Position numbers and translations under genes: made by a program
Notes under the pieces: model-generated
What the model saw: the letters and a program-made list of their open reading frames with translations, nothing else
What the model was told of the DNA's origin: nothing
Databases searched by the model: none
IMG/VR virus record: IMGVR_UViG_3300031922_000033
Span: 1 to 39,360 of that record
Length of the DNA: 39,360 nt
From: a virus
Lineage: Duplodnaviria > Caudoviricetes
Direction: 5' to 3' (one strand)
In this document: positions 6,749-39,360 of the stretch, one piece after another
Numbering within the stretch: the first letter of the stretch is position 1
Layout of the letters: each line of letters begins with the position of its first letter

Positions 6749-8682
6749 GAACGCTATCCCTCGATATAGAAACTTACTCAGGCACAGATCTTATCAAGCA
6801 TGGAGTATATCGATACGTAGAAGATCCTGAATTTACGCTATTGTTGATAGCATATGCGGTTGACGATGAGCCTGTCAGTCTAATAGATATTACAACCGGC
6901 CCATCGCCAACCCTTGATGAATTAAAGGCTTTATTATGTGACGCTCAGATCATAAAAATAGCCTATAATGCAAACTTTGAGCGCGTTTGTCTATCAGCGT
7001 TTTTTAATTTAAAGTTGCCACTGGAGCAGTGGAGATGCACAGCTGTTCAAGCCGCGTCTTTAAGCCTTCCGCGGACACTTGCGGCGGTAACTAATGTTAT
7101 GGGCTTACCGGAAGATAAGCGAAAGCTAGACATAGGTAAGAGCTTAATTCAGTATTTCTGCAAACCTTCGAGAAGTAATGGCGGCAAGAGAAACACGTCT
7201 GACCGTGACCCTGCAAAATGGGAAACGTTCAAGGAATATTGCAAACAAGACGTTGAGGTTGAACGCACGGTGCGAACTAGACTTGAGCGTTTTCCGCTTT
7301 TAGCCGAGGAATGGAAGCTGTGGATTCTCGATCAGCGAATCAATGATAAAGGCGTCAAGATCGACCGCATACTTGTATCAGAGGCTATACAGTGCAGCGA
7401 AGCTCATAGAGCCAAACTGGAAGCCGAGGCGATAGCGCTAACCAACCTTGAAAATCCCAACAGCTTACCGAAGCTAAAGGCGTGGCTGAGTTCGGCTACA
7501 GATAGCATAGTCACGGATTTAACCAAAGCGGCCATACCAGAACTTATAAAGTCAACAGATAACTATAAAGTTAAGCGCATTTTGAAAATCCGACAGGAGC
7601 TCGGAAAAACATCAGTCAGCAAATATCAAGCAATCGAACGAGTAGTCAATGCGGATAGTCGTGCACGGGGCTTATATCGCTTCTACGGAGCAAGTAGGAC
7701 AGGACGCTGGGCCGGACAGCTGATACAAACTCAAAACTTGGCGCAAAACAAACTAGCTGACCTCGCCTTAGCGCGACAGCTATTGCGCGAAAGCAGGCAC
7801 GACGATTTAGAAATGCTTTATGGTAATGTTCAGGATACACTTTCACAGCTGATACGTACCGCTTTCATTCCCGACAAAGACAAGGTTTTATACGTGCTTG
7901 ATTTTAGTGCGATAGAAGCGAGAGTTCTATCGTGGTTAGCCGATGAACGCTGGCGCATGGATGTCTTCAGAGAACACGGCCAAATATACGAGGCTTCGGC
8001 AAGTAGAATGTTTCATGTACCTATTGAAAGAATTCGAAAAGGGCTACCGGAATACGAATTACGCCAAAAAGGCAAAATTGCGGAATTAGCGCTTGGCTAT
8101 GGGGGCGCAGTAGGAGCTTTAATCGCTATGGGTGCGCTACGGATGGGACTGTCAGAGGATGAGCTGCCAAAGCTTGTAAGTGCTTGGAGAGCCAGCAACC
8201 CCGCAATAAAAGCATTTTGGTGGGGTGTAGAAAATAAAGTGCGAAACACAATACAGGATAACCGTACAACAGAAATACAAGGTCTAAGGTTTAGTTATGA
8301 GTCAGGTTTTCTTTTCATACGTCTCCCAAGTGGCCGCCGATTGGCTTACTCGAAACCTAGAATAGAAGGGGATGAAATAACATATGAGGGTGTCGAGCAA
8401 GGGAAAAAAGTTTGGGGTAGGATAAAGACCTACGGCGCTAAATTGGTTGAAAATATCGTGCAAGCAATAAGTCGCGACTGTCTAGCCGTTAGTATGACAG
8501 CTCTCGCTGAAAAAGATTACGCAATAGTCAGCCATGTACATGATGAAGTGGTCATTGAAGCTGAACAATCACAAGACGCATTAGAAAACATGAAAGAGAT
8601 CATGAGTATAACACCGACCTGGGCCGCCGGCCTACCACTTCGTGTGGAGGGTTTTGTATGTGACTTCTATCAAAAAGGATGA
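6745..8682 (+). CDS. polA: Family A DNA polymerase with 3'-5' exonuclease domain
   Basis: ExoI LDIETYS; TGRW; motif A DFSAIEARV; motif B RQKGKIAELALGYG; motif C HVHDE. Confidence 0.95.
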   Translation: MRTLSLDIETYSGTDLIKHGVYRYVEDPEFTLLLIAYAVDDEPVSLIDITTGPSPTLDELKALLCDAQIIKIAYNANFERVCLSAFFNLKLPLEQWRCTAVQAASLSLPRTLAAVTNVMGLPEDKRKLDIGKSLIQYFCKPSRSNGGKRNTSDRDPAKWETFKEYCKQDVEVERTVRTRLERFPLLAEEWKLWILDQRINDKGVKIDRILVSEAIQCSEAHRAKLEAEAIALTNLENPNSLPKLKAWLSSATDSIVTDLTKAAIPELIKSTDNYKVKRILKIRQELGKTSVSKYQAIERVVNADSRARGLYRFYGASRTGRWAGQLIQTQNLAQNKLADLALARQLLRESRHDDLEMLYGNVQDTLSQLIRTAFIPDKDKVLYVLDFSAIEARVLSWLADERWRMDVFREHGQIYEASASRMFHVPIERIRKGLPEYELRQKGKIAELALGYGGAVGALIAMGALRMGLSEDELPKLVSAWRASNPAIKAFWWGVENKVRNTIQDNRTTEIQGLRFSYESGFLFIRLPSGRRLAYSKPRIEGDEITYEGVEQGKKVWGRIKTYGAKLVENIVQAISRDCLAVSMTALAEKDYAIVSHVHDEVVIEAEQSQDALENMKEIMSITPTWAAGLPLRVEGFVCDFYQKG

Positions 8683-15115: not shown

Positions 15116-15154
15116 AAGACAGACAGAAAAGACAGACAGAAAAGACAGACAGAC
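15116..15154 (+). repeat. 13-bp tandem repeat x3 upstream of terS (candidate packaging signal)
   Basis: AAGACAGACAGAA, AAGACAGACAGAA, AAGACAGACAGAC. Confidence 0.75.
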
Positions 15155-15172
15155 AAAGGGAGGCGGATTGCA

Positions 15173-28803: not shown

Positions 28804-29577
28804 GTGAGCCACTTTTCTTTTGCAGGTGAACACTCGACTCTCTATCATGTTCGGATGCTCAAATCTGAAGAGTCGATACTCCCTCCTACCCGTGATAAGG
28901 TTATTTTGTTGCCCGGTAGACATGGCGCATTGAGAATGTTGCCAGACTTGGGAGAGCGTCACATCACACTCGAGTGTTGGCTTGATGTTGATACAATCCC
29001 GTTCATCGAGGGGCAGAGACAGGAAAGGCTTCGTGCAGTCGCCGCATGGCTTAATCCGCTGCGTGGAGTTCAGAAACTAATATTTGATTATGATACCGAC
29101 AAGTATTTTGACGCAATCGTTACTTCGCAGGGGATAAACTCACGTATAGAAGTACATCAGGGGATTTTCCCTGTGGAGTTTGTCTGTCCTGACCCATTCT
29201 ATTATGATGCGGCCCCGGATGTCGTGACAATAGCTGTATCTCCTCATCAGCATAATCAGCGCGGCACAGCACCGGCGGATCCTTTACTCAGATTACAGGG
29301 AGTATCGCTTGGTGGTTCGCAGAGGCTAATAATCCAAATTGGTACGCTGTCTGTCACATATACGGGGGCATTAGCTGCAGGAAACTGGTTGGAGATAGAC
29401 TGTCAGGCAAAGACAGTGTTTCGAGTAGTTGGAGCAACACGGACAAGGGTGCTTGCGCTTTTAGAGCGTCCTGTCTTTCCACAGCTTGCGCCCGGCATAA
29501 ATACGATAACGATAACTGCAACGGGTGGGGCAACTTGGTCACGCCTAGACATCCACTGCCGGAATAGATGGCTTTAG
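28804..29577 (+). CDS. Distal tail protein (Dit)
   Basis: FSFAG start, LIFDYDTDKYF, FVCPDPFYY, LAPGIN, ends RNRWL. Confidence 0.88.
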   Translation: MSHFSFAGEHSTLYHVRMLKSEESILPPTRDKVILLPGRHGALRMLPDLGERHITLECWLDVDTIPFIEGQRQERLRAVAAWLNPLRGVQKLIFDYDTDKYFDAIVTSQGINSRIEVHQGIFPVEFVCPDPFYYDAAPDVVTIAVSPHQHNQRGTAPADPLLRLQGVSLGGSQRLIIQIGTLSVTYTGALAAGNWLEIDCQAKTVFRVVGATRTRVLALLERPVFPQLAPGINTITITATGGATWSRLDIHCRNRWL

Positions 29578-29607
29578 TCGCCCTCGTGCGGGGGCGTGGA
29601 TTGAAAA
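29577..29607 (+). CRISPR. Solitary type I-C CRISPR repeat within the late operon
   Basis: GTCGCCCTCGTGCGGGGGCGTGGATTGAAAA: GTCGC 5' end, 7-bp stem CGCCCTC/GGGGGCG, GTGGATTGAAA 3' handle; same family as the repeats at 39202 and 39261. Confidence 0.85.
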
Positions 29608-29637
29608 AAACAAACAAACAAGCAAGGAGGCGAAATT

Positions 29638-30642
29638 ATGGCGCAAACACCGTTTAAGAGAATAGAGAGCCGTGAAATTTACGGTGCTGATATCTCCGGT
29701 CTGCAAGACGCCATAAACAAGATGGAGGCTGTTTTGGATATGCTGACGACGAGTGTGACGAATCATTCATTACTAGCGGTATCTGATCAGCCTGAACCTG
29801 CACTGCATCGCAGGATATACGAAGGAACGATCCGTAATTGGCTAGAGACTCCTGTACCGGTAATCAGACGGGACGGTGTGGTTGTGTCACCTGCTGAATA
29901 TATTCTCTATGCAGCACAAGGAATGATTGTCTTTAATCAGCAGCAAACATTAGGCGTCGGGATTACAGCCGATTTCACACATATTCGTGCGGAATCGCCA
30001 CTGTCAGGGCATGTCGGCGCGGGTGGAGGCGTTCACTCGGCGGCTTCACATGCAGCAGCAGGTTTTATGTCGGCGACAGACAAAGTGGTTTTTGATGCTT
30101 GGTCGGAACTGTATCTATCGCAACGTCAGATAGGCCGATACATGGGTAGTAATATTACCGGTGGAACAGAGACGATGACGGTAGCAGCAAATCAGTTTGA
30201 TGTAACGAACTTTTATCTTCCATTTACCATGACATTTGACAGAATCATGGTTCGAGTAATGACTGCTGTAGCCGGGAATTGCAGAATAGGAGTTTACGCT
30301 AGTGATCCGGCAACTTTTTATCCGACTACACGTTTGTTAAACGCAGGTATAGTGACAACAGGTACGACCGGAGACAGAGAACTAACGATTAATCTCACAC
30401 TAACCCGTGGATGGTATTGGCTGGCACGTTTGCATGATGCCGCTCCCGGACTTCTTGGAATATCCGGAGCAGCTATGCCCGCAACTATGCTCAGAATGCC
30501 ATTCGACCCTGCGTTTTCGGGATTCGTTACGAATTTCCGAATCGCTCGTACTTATGCCGAAGATTTGCCAGAACTGTTTCCGGGTGGAGCAATCGCTCGA
30601 ACAGGAGGACAAGTGGCTGTATTTCTCAGGAGGGCTGCATAG
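29638..30642 (+). CDS. Tail fibre/baseplate protein, candidate receptor-binding protein
   Basis: After Dit; HSAASHAAAGFMSATDK tail-fibre repeat motif; beta-rich C-terminal domain. Confidence 0.7.
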   Translation: MAQTPFKRIESREIYGADISGLQDAINKMEAVLDMLTTSVTNHSLLAVSDQPEPALHRRIYEGTIRNWLETPVPVIRRDGVVVSPAEYILYAAQGMIVFNQQQTLGVGITADFTHIRAESPLSGHVGAGGGVHSAASHAAAGFMSATDKVVFDAWSELYLSQRQIGRYMGSNITGGTETMTVAANQFDVTNFYLPFTMTFDRIMVRVMTAVAGNCRIGVYASDPATFYPTTRLLNAGIVTTGTTGDRELTINLTLTRGWYWLARLHDAAPGLLGISGAAMPATMLRMPFDPAFSGFVTNFRIARTYAEDLPELFPGGAIARTGGQVAVFLRRAA

Positions 30643-35434: not shown

Positions 35435-35499
35435 AGGGAGGTGGTTTAGGAATTTTGGTGCTTTATCAAAGAATTTATTAAAAAAAAGGAGTGTTCAAA

Positions 35500-36105
35500 A
35501 TGTCGTGGTTAGAACATCATAGAAGGTTTTGTGTTAACAGGTCGAATCAAACAATTTCCGTAAGAGCTCCTGTAAATGACCCTCAAGGACCAATCGTAGG
35601 CACTATTAGACCGGGAGATTTCTTTCGATGGGAGGGAGTAAGGCTTTTTGGAACGTGGGGTGCTGATAATAGAGTAGAGGTGCATTTTAGAGACGCTACT
35701 GGGAGATTTACTGTTGGAGGCTTTGGGTTTACAGCTGTTCAAGATCAGCCAAATTTCTATGCTCCTGTGGCAAACTTCCGTAGGTTAAATGTATCGTGGA
35801 ACGGGATGACTTTGAATGTTTTTGAAATTCAGAATCGTCCAGTAGAGCTTGTAAATTCAAATGGAATTTTAATACAGACATTGCTTCTAGGTACTAGAAT
35901 CGGAGTCAATGGGATAGGGGTTATGGGAACGGCTCTGTTTTCACATTGGATTGCACATGCTGTATTAAGGACCCCAGGTGAGCACTTACCTGAACAATGG
36001 CAATGGGCTGATGTAGTGAATAATCAACACGGCTTTGTCAATACCGGTTTGAGTATTGCGAATCGTGCGGAAACAATTTCTATCCGTACTAATCTAGTAC
36101 CCTAA
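35500..36105 (+). CDS. Accessory hypothetical protein, possibly two SH3-like domains
   Basis: AAGGAG RBS before ATG 35500; IVGTIRPGD and IQTLLLGT segments. Confidence 0.65.
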   Translation: MSWLEHHRRFCVNRSNQTISVRAPVNDPQGPIVGTIRPGDFFRWEGVRLFGTWGADNRVEVHFRDATGRFTVGGFGFTAVQDQPNFYAPVANFRRLNVSWNGMTLNVFEIQNRPVELVNSNGILIQTLLLGTRIGVNGIGVMGTALFSHWIAHAVLRTPGEHLPEQWQWADVVNNQHGFVNTGLSIANRAETISIRTNLVP

Positions 36106-36720
36106 TGAGGTATAAAGATTAAGCGGATGTGACCAAGGGTAATCATTGGTCATACGAGTAGCCCAGGAGTCAAGGATATTCATGTCGCTATCAAGCACAA
36201 GATGAATTTGAATGACATCTGAGCCTGTATAGAACCAGATCTCACGCCAATAAGCGTTGTCAAGACTGAGTAATAGCTGTGTTTCATCTGCAGTATGCTG
36301 CGCCAAAAAAGCCACTTGATCTTCACTAGGTCCGGATGCGTGTTCATATCTGCCGAATTCTTCTTCAAGCTGGGCAAGAAAGTCAGGATGGGGGTAGTCC
36401 AGCATAAATGCTTGGGCTACTTCCTTACTGTACATGGAACCGCCTTCTCCCCAGTTTACGATTGAAGAGAGCTCAACACAGCGTACGATTTTAATTTGCT
36501 CTTCAACAGGAAGATCACTAACAGCGACACCAGTGTAATCTTTTTCTACTTCAATCGCCTCGGGAGCAGGATTATTATCCGGTTGTTTATCAGGTATGGG
36601 CGGGGGTTGAGCCAAATAAGAGACAGTGCATCCGCTTAGAAAAACGAGGATAGCGGATAACAACACAGCGAAAATCACAACCAACCAAAGCTTTTTGGTT
36701 CTTGAAAGTGTAAACCTCAT
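36094..36720 (-). CDS. Lipoprotein
   Basis: AAGGAGGT RBS; signal peptide with lipobox LSGC; Pro-rich linker; acidic domain. Confidence 0.8.
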   Translation of the reverse strand: MRFTLSRTKKLWLVVIFAVLLSAILVFLSGCTVSYLAQPPPIPDKQPDNNPAPEAIEVEKDYTGVAVSDLPVEEQIKIVRCVELSSIVNWGEGGSMYSKEVAQAFMLDYPHPDFLAQLEEEFGRYEHASGPSEDQVAFLAQHTADETQLLLSLDNAYWREIWFYTGSDVIQIHLVLDSDMNILDSWATRMTNDYPWSHPLNLYTSLGY

Positions 36721-36725
36721 ATTTA

Positions 36726-38003
36726 TTACCTCCTTGTGATTGTTGTCTTGATCGACTTCCACATGTCGTCCGGTACTAAGCCTAGTCGCCAAAGGGATAT
36801 CCCTTGTAACCGATAACGTTTAGCAACTCCGATTTTTTCAAGGATGCTCTCACTTGTTTCACTGTGAGCAGATATGGCTAAAATCAGTTTTTCTGCGGGA
36901 ACAACCTCAAGCGCCATCTCCACTGCCCGCACCACCCGGTTAAGCGGTTCAGGCCTTGGTCCGTAATCGTGCGCCATGATAATGATTCGGTCGGCCAGCT
37001 TGCCAAGTGCTTCATAATCGTATCCTCGATATGAGCTGTTCGGAGGATGAATTGTAAGCGTCAGGGTTTTCCCTGCGTCTCTGAGTGGTTGTGATAGCAT
37101 GGCAATAAAGCGGGTAAAGCTGTCACGGATCTGTAGTTGCGTATCTCCTGAAGCGTACCTGCCTAAGCCTTCTAGGTTTAGATTAACGCCGTGATACAAA
37201 GATGACTCTTGTACAATAGCGGCAACTGTGCGAGACATGGCCTGTTCATTGCTAAGAAAAGCGGTAAGAAACCCGTCACGGTTTGTCTCGTGAACGACCA
37301 TCTCTGTTCTGAGTCCGAATTCTTTTGCTCTGGAAAGTACTATTTCCCAATTGGGTGGGCGTAACCAAAAATGTCGTGAAGTGCGGCGGGTTAAAAGGTT
37401 GCCTTGTTCGTCTATAGTGTACCAGCCTAACGCCAATTCTCTTACAATGTCGGTGTTGCCTGGGGCTATTTCAGGAAAAGGAGCACCAAAAAGATCTAAC
37501 CAGCTGCTTGCTGCTCCAGCACCTAAAGCGTAAAAGCCAATAACGTTTATGTTGCGAGGTGGGGAACTGATGTGTATAGTGCGGGTTTCCGAGACCCAGT
37601 TTACCTTACAGCCAAATGCTTCACTGAAAAATCTCAACGGTACAAGCGTCCGGCCATTAACGATAATCGGAGGTGTATCGAGTGTTAATGGCTGGTCATT
37701 TACCATAGCAATTTTATTGTTAGCCTGAAGTGTAATTCTTGTATTGCCGTCGCTGGCTGAGATGGTGCGTGTATTGCTGTCCCAGCTTACGTTTATGTTT
37801 ATAGCTTCTGCGATTAATCGAAAAGGTACAAAAGTTCTACCGTTTACAATCTGCGGAGGCACATCAAAGCGTACCGGCAAGCCATCCAATAAAACGGTAA
37901 CAACTGGGGAATTGGCCATTGCCTGTTGATATGGTGGCACGGACAAAGATATGATAATAACAAATAGAAGTGTAGTTATTTTGAAAGCTGCTGCTCTTCT
38001 CAT
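36726..38003 (-). CDS. Exported copper-amine-oxidase-N-terminal (stalk) domain plus degenerate GH18 domain protein
   Basis: Signal peptide; GRTFVPFRLIAE and GRTLVPLRFFSE repeats; GH18 features GVNLNLE, YDY, IMAHDY, GISLWRLG. Confidence 0.85.
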   Translation of the reverse strand: MRRAAAFKITTLLFVIIISLSVPPYQQAMANSPVVTVLLDGLPVRFDVPPQIVNGRTFVPFRLIAEAININVSWDSNTRTISASDGNTRITLQANNKIAMVNDQPLTLDTPPIIVNGRTLVPLRFFSEAFGCKVNWVSETRTIHISSPPRNINVIGFYALGAGAASSWLDLFGAPFPEIAPGNTDIVRELALGWYTIDEQGNLLTRRTSRHFWLRPPNWEIVLSRAKEFGLRTEMVVHETNRDGFLTAFLSNEQAMSRTVAAIVQESSLYHGVNLNLEGLGRYASGDTQLQIRDSFTRFIAMLSQPLRDAGKTLTLTIHPPNSSYRGYDYEALGKLADRIIIMAHDYGPRPEPLNRVVRAVEMALEVVPAEKLILAISAHSETSESILEKIGVAKRYRLQGISLWRLGLVPDDMWKSIKTTITRR

Positions 38004-39158: not shown

Positions 39159-39187
39159 TAGACATCTTTTGGTCTTTATAGTACACT
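39159..39187 (+). promoter_or_regulatory. Sigma-A promoter of the mini-array
   Basis: TAGACA (39159-39164)-17 nt-TACACT (39182-39187), 14 nt before repeat 1. Confidence 0.7.
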
Positions 39188-39201
39188 ACAATCAGTGGGT
39201 G

Positions 39202-39292
39202 GTCGCCTCTAATGGGTGGGGCGTGGATTGAAACTATAAATTATTTATGCAACGAGGGTGGTCGCCCCTTACGCAGGGGCGTGGATTGAAAC
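39202..39292 (+). CRISPR. Type I-C CRISPR mini-array: two repeats, one 26-nt spacer, no cas genes
   Basis: R1 GTCGCCTCTAATGGGTGGGGCGTGGATTGAAAC (39202-39234); spacer TATAAATTATTTATGCAACGAGGGTG (39235-39260); R2 GTCGCCCCTTACGCAGGGGCGTGGATTGAAAC (39261-39292). Confidence 0.9.
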
Positions 39293-39345
39293 AAGCGAGC
39301 ATGCCTATAACCGCGGATCGATATTGTGACTTTATCATGGTACGG

Positions 39346-39358
39346 CTCGCCTCCACCA
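39346..39358 (+). other. Probable attR core (duplicated 3' end of tmRNA or a tRNA)
   Basis: CTCGCCTCCACCA ends in CCA like an acceptor-stem 3' strand but lacks a preceding T-arm; lies after the lysis genes. Confidence 0.55.
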
Positions 39359-39360
39359 AA

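Follow-up and report, generated by a model that had tools for sequence, protein, structure and literature searches.

A solitary type I-C CRISPR repeat with an adjoining AAAC tract in a phage tail operon: a candidate RNA decoy for host Cas proteins

Camara-Wilpert et al. (2023) defined the RNA anti-CRISPRs (Racrs), the mechanism of which is, in that account, worked out for type I-F only (PMC10651486). Its type I-C example, RacrIC1, lies 11 nt after the acrIC5 stop codon in one bicistronic RNA and is described as inhibiting I-C immunity, and the accompanying catalogue of solitary repeats (SRUs) holds about 1,000 I-C rows, as judged from 2,014 occurrences of 'I-C' at two per row in the rows displayed (PMC10651486). 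Two other kinds of phage element are close to these, namely CRISPR mini-arrays (PMC11656645; bioRxiv 2023.03.03.530964) and the Cracr or crlRNAs, which are presented as phage RNAs that resemble repeats and are loaded with host Cas proteins, type I-C included, and for which the criterion given is at least nine PAM-proximal matches to a cas or toxin promoter (bioRxiv 2024.10.29.618823).

Here we analysed a lone repeat, R1, in a virus record of 39,360 bases that is 86% complete (the whole stretch is called the window below). Judged from its gene content (IrrE-like protease, repressor, replication genes, terminase, portal, tape measure, Dit, Tal-like endopeptidase, holin and amidase), the phage looks like a temperate siphophage. 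R1 is a type I-C repeat of 31 nt on the plus strand (29577–29607), and its first base, G29577, is the final base of the TAG stop codon of the gene encoding the distal tail protein Dit (28804–29577, plus strand; PHROG 33 Dit, E 1.4e-28; Pfam Sipho_tail). It is followed on the same strand by an (AAAC)3-AAGC tract (29608–29623), by the Shine–Dalgarno sequence AAGGAGG (29624–29630) and, 30 nt after the repeat, by the ATG at 29638 of a 334-aa virion gene located between Dit and Tal (29638–30642, plus strand); every coordinate given in the preliminary description was correct. Like RacrIC1, R1 is a lone phage I-C repeat just after a stop codon inside an mRNA, with a subtype that probably matches that of the host. 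Unlike RacrIC1, it lies in a tail operon flanked by Dit and the virion gene, with no acr-like gene beside it and thus without the Racr trait of often being next to an acr; downstream of it come an RBS and a gene that looks essential, and it carries the (AAAC)n tract. The exact 30-nt core of R1 was absent, in both orientations, from the SRU catalogue in the supplements of PMC10651486.

Folded alone, R1 formed a 7-bp stem (29579–29596) with a 4-nt loop in 82% of the ensemble, followed by an 11-nt single-stranded 3′ overhang (29597–29607), the anatomy that characterizes type I-C repeats. Cas5d is described as recognizing the I-C stem and overhang and cutting so as to leave an 11-nt 5′ tag (PMC5965381); in R1 the cut is predicted to fall between 29596 and 29597, and the predicted cut product was nearly unstructured upon folding. 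In contexts of at least 140 nt, six of the seven stem pairs were still predicted with P 0.8–0.98, while the basal pair was mostly open and the base of the stem together with the start of the handle was predicted to pair with Dit codons at 29551–29556 on the plus strand (P ~0.6–0.7). The cut site is therefore predicted to be partly hidden in naked RNA, and access of Cas5d to R1 may depend on translation, since the pairing partner lies within Dit codons. This pairing is probably due to chance, because the repeat-less relative L003 has five of these six bases.

The best match of R1 among array repeats covered 29 of 32 columns (90.6%), with an array variant seen three times, and SRUFinder defines its units by at least 90% identity to a known repeat together with a bit score of at least 41.1. 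A type I-C repeat should be close to those of arrays that adjoin cas8c and cas7, and R3, one of two further repeats in the window, matched its best array repeat at 32/32; the repeat of the probable host was matched by R1 at 27/32 in a hand alignment, and the repeats of other arrays at 28–29/32. R1 falls one base short of the most common array repeat, and its last base is A, an ending seen in 2 of the 2,339 array repeat copies examined. Its 14-nt handle had three exact matches in the window, against a shuffle mean of 0.37 matches with up to two mismatches allowed, and an Rfam search returned no match. The type I-C identity, the sense orientation and the handle proposed in the preliminary description were thus upheld.

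As SRUFinder defines it, R1 is solitary, being intergenic, without a partial repeat within 100 bp and with the next handle 9.6 kb away. Calling it solitary is accurate locally and not for the window, where two more I-C repeats form a mini-array after the endolysin gene (39202–39292, plus strand), made of R2 (33 nt, 39202–39234), a 26-nt spacer and R3 (32 nt, 39261–39292), the latter identical to the repeats of real CRISPR arrays (32/32). R2 and R3 lie one spacer apart, an arrangement that R1 does not have, and a promoter-like site with a 9/12 match directly precedes them (39159–39187, plus strand). With this site and an array-identical repeat, R2–R3 resemble the phage mini-arrays as described (PMC11656645; bioRxiv 2023.03.03.530964), while R1 differs in having no second repeat and no recognizable target; no target of the R2–R3 spacer was found either, and the sequences after R1, R2 and R3 likewise gave none. 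The motif GGGTG precedes both R2 and R3 (region 39159–39326). The idea that the 9.6 kb from R1 to R2 entered as one block was rejected, as gene content and gene order are the same in the related record L001, which has no repeats. At the very end of the record, 39340–39360 resembles the 3′ end of a tRNA or tmRNA and is a possible attachment site; ARAGORN called no tRNA or tmRNA gene in the window.

No promoter-like site was found near R1, as had been stated before, the nearest one on the plus strand being a 9/12 site inside Dit (29180–29208); the scan of the window gave 22 promoter-like sites against 17.8 expected by chance. R1 therefore departs from the SRUs that often lie directly behind their own promoter. 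A role of the R1 hairpin as a terminator was rejected, given that no U tract follows it on either strand and no terminator was called.

The gene after R1, previously called a tail-fibre gene, is a virion gene whose product has a C-terminal β-sandwich in the predicted structure (mean pLDDT 76.6), like the tip domains of phage fibres and spikes. Among known structures, the predicted fold resembles one chain of the capsid of cyanophage A4 as well as domains from collagen-repeat proteins of phages, which makes a fibre or spike role plausible. A viral scan using this protein as the query retrieved no locus, and a protein atlas search retrieved unnamed clusters only. Among the 58 hits to relatives of the gene, six rows were named, and two of the six were labelled Peptococcaceae and Alkaliphilus; for this reason the host is probably a member of the Bacillota. 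Within the gene, the C-terminal half (29986–30506) was far more variable among strains than the N-terminus. Strain variability was also seen at 35491–36105, where a 204-aa ORF was swapped for a segment of similar length in sequencing runs X9 and X11. Two antisense accessory genes, a lipoprotein-like ORF and a copper-amine-oxidase-N/GH18 protein, lie between the tail and lysis modules (36094–38003, minus strand) and are also present in L001.

At the dit junction, where a check of conservation had been suggested in the preliminary description, R1 was absent from all 10 Dit relatives in IMG/VR (48–78% identity), every one of which has the same next gene, with the RBS at the same place in repeat-less relatives, and the gap from the Dit stop codon to that gene was 12–16 nt in the 10 relatives as compared with 60 nt here. 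The handle sequence was not present in any of the five whole records searched. The stretch itself was present in 20 listed sequencing runs from 13 studies, none of them an RNA dataset, and eight runs from eight studies were compared. The 30-nt core of R1 (29577–29606) was unchanged in six of the eight, runs in which every difference in the spanning contigs was accounted for (X2, X4, X8, X9, X10 and X20), and position 29607 was T in X8. The AAAC tract had one unit fewer in X4, and one more in X8, X11 and X16, than in the window, so that the linker from repeat to start codon takes lengths of 26, 30 or 34 nt within this phage (±4 nt among strains); the RBS stayed within ~34 nt of the predicted cut in every strain seen. 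Relatives with an empty site co-occurred in the same runs, as indicated by a loose end at 29636 (X11 and X2) and by a contig 44 nt shorter (X10). Since all 10 Dit relatives and the co-occurring relatives show the empty site, the insertion is a recent event confined to a single lineage. The strains differed from the window by 0–16 substitutions per record and are consequently too close to show selection on R1.

The repeats also point to the CRISPR type of the host. An array from another organism (L145) with a repeat identical to R3 adjoins the I-C genes for Cas7/Csd2 and Cas8c/Csd1. Contigs L148 and L151, which share 22 spacers and represent one array with the R3 repeat, hold a spacer that matches the window at 34/34 within the DNA polymerase gene (6785–6818, minus strand), the only full-length match to the phage among 1,269 unique spacers. 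The usual type I-C PAM is TTC, and the protospacer is flanked 5′ by TCT, with TTC one base further out. Because an array with an R3-identical repeat holds a 34/34 spacer against the phage, the host probably has type I-C CRISPR, evidence that consists of a single spacer with a PAM off by one base on contigs bearing no cas genes. The repeat–spacer junction was found in no GTDB genome, the 61 GTDB stretches with the repeat had no spacer against the phage, and two Bacillota metagenome-assembled genomes gave no Dit match. A contig with a 72%-identical protease gene (L146) carries a lone copy of R3, and two metagenome contigs (L149 and L150) have an R3-identical repeat followed by an AAAC/AAC-rich tract.

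The tract after R1 recurs in other phages. AAAC directly followed 6 of 66 solitary repeats, as opposed to starting 5 of 1,262 array spacers (Fisher p 4.6e-6), a comparison made on a feature picked after seeing R1 and with small numbers; after the trailer repeats of arrays it was found in 0 of 25. A scan of the whole collection for the handle plus AAACAA gave 21 loci, or 17 distinct sequences as sorted by hand, one of which had no stem and one of which lay inside an array; of the remaining 15, nine had an ORF of at least 60 codons starting 18–43 nt downstream and six had none such. The longer sequence AAACAAAC was found after the repeat in eight other viral lineages and one metagenome contig, and at the start of none of 1,398 array spacers. 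In four of the eight lineages (L357, L351, L355 and L359), no gene begins within the spacer window: in L357 a promoter-like site, the repeat and (AAAC)5-AAGC follow one another with the portal gene 172 nt away, in L351 a strong hairpin is predicted ~29 nt after the repeat, and in L355 an AAAC-rich spacer of 37 nt is closed by a second, degenerate repeat to form a mini-array. Other AAAC cases come after terminase or precede tail genes, a major tail gene among them, and the tract follows repeats with different stems and last bases (C, T and A) in unrelated phages. Linkers before gene starts were richer in AAC than ordinary leaders (AAAC in 6 of 12 versus 6 of 75), while solitary repeats with and without a gene start differed weakly in AAC content (p 0.06). 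Its occurrence where there is no RBS at all assigns the tract to the repeat and not to translation. Tetranucleotide slippage, which clearly acts on the tract, could also help to create it. The phage has an A-rich tetranucleotide (GACA) tract at ~15117–15160 as well, ahead of the RBS of the gene before that of the terminase large subunit. Solitary repeats and the bicistronic RacrIC1 are already published, and the AAAC tract is the part that we did not find described: a literature search covering mainly open-access papers and the main text of preprints gave no account of an AAAC-rich spacer or of a natural phage repeat controlling translation.

The preliminary description held that the repeat was so placed that its spacer is the RBS of the next gene, and recognized no described case within a structural operon. 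A scan for a repeat followed by an RBS and ATG returned 11 loci in several unrelated phages, and a scan for the repeat only, over 13 of 64 parts of IMG/VR, gave 124 stretches, of which 123 loci were examined and 66 solitary repeats kept after a stem filter and rough de-duplication (of 76 solo matches, eight with a stem below 5 bp, including the AAAC case L278, and two duplicates were left out). Six of the 66 lacked the flank for the downstream and upstream tests. In the other 60, an RBS and start codon in the sense orientation lay 5–60 nt downstream in 14 as compared with 4 in the mirror position (p 0.031) and within 100 nt in 22 as compared with 5, the repeats facing the same way as the following gene; immediately ahead of the repeat, a stop codon in the sense orientation was found in 15 versus 6 (p 0.064). 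The distance from repeat to start codon was scattered in other phages, from 10 to 43 nt; together with the length variation among the strains and the AAAC tracts lacking an RBS, this speaks against a placement of the repeat for the RBS, without refuting it, as the RBS lies within ~34 nt of the predicted cut in every strain seen. The same layout recurs before portals and before tail genes, including a major tail gene; virion genes flanked 7 of the 14 labelled solitary-repeat loci (44 given) versus 14 of the 26 labelled controls (40 given), as counted by hand with controls that were chance motif hits, mostly inside genes. With no excess over background, a special tie of lone repeats to structural operons was rejected, and the setting of R1, a common one for lone repeats, is ordinary in this respect. 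Taken together, the sense bias, the scattered distances and the lack of a virion-gene excess indicate that lone I-C repeats often ride mRNAs in the sense orientation, anywhere in the genome. At the terminase–portal junction of another phage, the repeat was again absent in three of three relatives (63–67% portal identity, with two sharing an identical junction). Very tight repeat–RBS–ATG cassettes, in which the start codon comes 10–15 nt behind the repeat and a stop codon immediately precedes it, were seen in L234 and L239 (near position 1500), L320 and L321, which are the best candidates for an effect on translation. In L012, L013, L016, L018, L021 and L102, mostly two-repeat mini-arrays, the last I-C repeat abuts the RBS of the next gene, which is an integrase gene in L012.

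We consider, with moderate confidence, that R1 and the AAAC tract constitute a Racr-type RNA decoy that rides the late mRNA and carries a dummy spacer. Having no promoter of its own, R1 would be transcribed from the late operon, Cas5d would cut at the predicted site and keep the 11-nt handle, and Cas7 would load on the unstructured tract, where there is no 3′ hairpin to stop it; a published proposal has Cas5–Cas7 nucleating on the 5′ handle and a 3′ hairpin ending Cas7 polymerization (PMC11127173). Bound to a dummy spacer that targets nothing, Cas proteins would become scarcer for targeting crRNAs during late replication and packaging; in a type I-F system a non-targeting crRNA was reported to reduce interference (PMC10651486). 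The RBS in the coated stretch would be a by-product of insertion at a tight gene junction, with some effect on translation to be expected. Support for such a decoy is indirect and comes from the intact I-C repeat, the probable I-C host that targets the phage, and the AAAC tract common to stand-alone non-coding cassettes. Against it count the divergence of R1 from the probable host repeat, its terminal A, a cut site predicted to be partly hidden in naked RNA, the lack of a flanking acr-like gene, and its timing, given that anti-CRISPRs are usually expressed early and late expression would be poor timing for one. Such late timing, together with strains that show no sign of selection, still allows for a neutral or near-neutral relic, that is, a host repeat captured by recombination and tolerated at a transcribed junction, with the AAAC tract grown by slippage. 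A relic would agree with a recent insert in one lineage, with the gain and loss of whole AAAC units among strains, with the indifference of lone repeats to virion genes and with the similar A-rich tract before the first late gene of this phage, and many chromosomal single repeats were deemed spurious by Shmakov et al. (bioRxiv 2023.03.03.530964). We nevertheless regard it as unlikely: the same tract follows repeats of differing stem and last base in unrelated phages, it is missing after array trailers and AAACAAAC from spacer starts, and solitary repeats share the orientation of the following gene.

A further reading gives the element a role in the mRNA itself, with Cas5d cleavage and Cas7 coating changing how stable the message of the next virion gene is or how well it is translated, so that the make-up of the tail tip would track the CRISPR state of the host. 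The excess of downstream RBS and start codons over the mirror position, the AAC-rich linkers before starts, the recurrence of the layout ahead of other virion genes and the short distance from predicted cut to RBS in all strains argue for it. Precedent is said to come from the Csy4 hairpins engineered by Qi et al. in 2012, in which a CRISPR repeat between cistrons reportedly serves as an RNA processing site and sets operon expression; unlike R1, that design is synthetic and of type I-F, and its nuclease is said to stay on the upstream piece, whereas in the I-C case the handle and bound proteins would go with the downstream, RBS-bearing piece. Such control of the message seems to us quite improbable for R1, considering that the distance from repeat to start scatters both among phages and within this one, that the tract also occurs where no RBS exists, that the ten relatives, which lack the element, have the same protein, and that a sense bias is expected of any decoy borrowing a transcript. 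We give still less weight to a combined reading, in which 'I-C repeat + (AAAC)n' is a convergent portable module that, when placed in an mRNA leader, lets host Cas5d and Cas7 tune the tail-tip protein while they are drained. The least credible reading for R1 is that of a one-repeat guide, the following 34 nt directing host Cascade to a competing phage or, Cracr-like, to a host cas promoter. Phage I-C Cracr arrays are described (bioRxiv 2024.10.29.618823), and sequence resembling the phage's own genes at 24/34 or better followed the repeat in 3 of 36 phage cases versus 2 of 2,512 foreign comparisons, with L015 (27/34) in addition. The 34 nt after R1, on the other hand, are of low complexity and vary in length among strains, match at most 21/34 elsewhere in the window and in 11 related loci, and yielded, across 70 host loci totalling 0.92 Mb (the true host not among them), no recurrent PAM-AAACAAAC site and, unlike Cracrs, no seed for a promoter of cas or toxin genes. 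A one-repeat guide may thus fit some other phages and not the low-complexity sequence of R1.

What makes R1 worth attention is the shared dummy-spacer tract together with ready natural controls, the locus being a natural experiment in which relatives with and without the insert occur in the same samples and the linker takes lengths of 26, 30 and 34 nt. Catalogues of solitary repeats take in the repeat only; in type I-C, the part downstream of the cut should be the one of importance. The recurring (AAAC)n is a concrete candidate for an I-C decoy spacer and would help to tell decoys among the lone repeats from one-repeat guides against related phages. Should host Cas proteins change the translation of the next gene, this would be a new phage use of the CRISPR machinery, and the module reading, if true, would mean natural CRISPR processing controlling phage structural genes. 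In L015 (1176–1209), L241, L253 and L287, the repeat is followed by 34 nt that form a diverged copy, on the same strand, of a gene lying nearby in that phage. The match in L015 is to the end of terL at 27/34, in L241 the phage's own copy is preceded by TTC, and these four may be one-repeat guides against related phages. Several single contigs carry two or three dispersed solitary I-C repeats (L019 and L040, L041 and L042, L066 and L067, L236 and L237, and L243 and L266).
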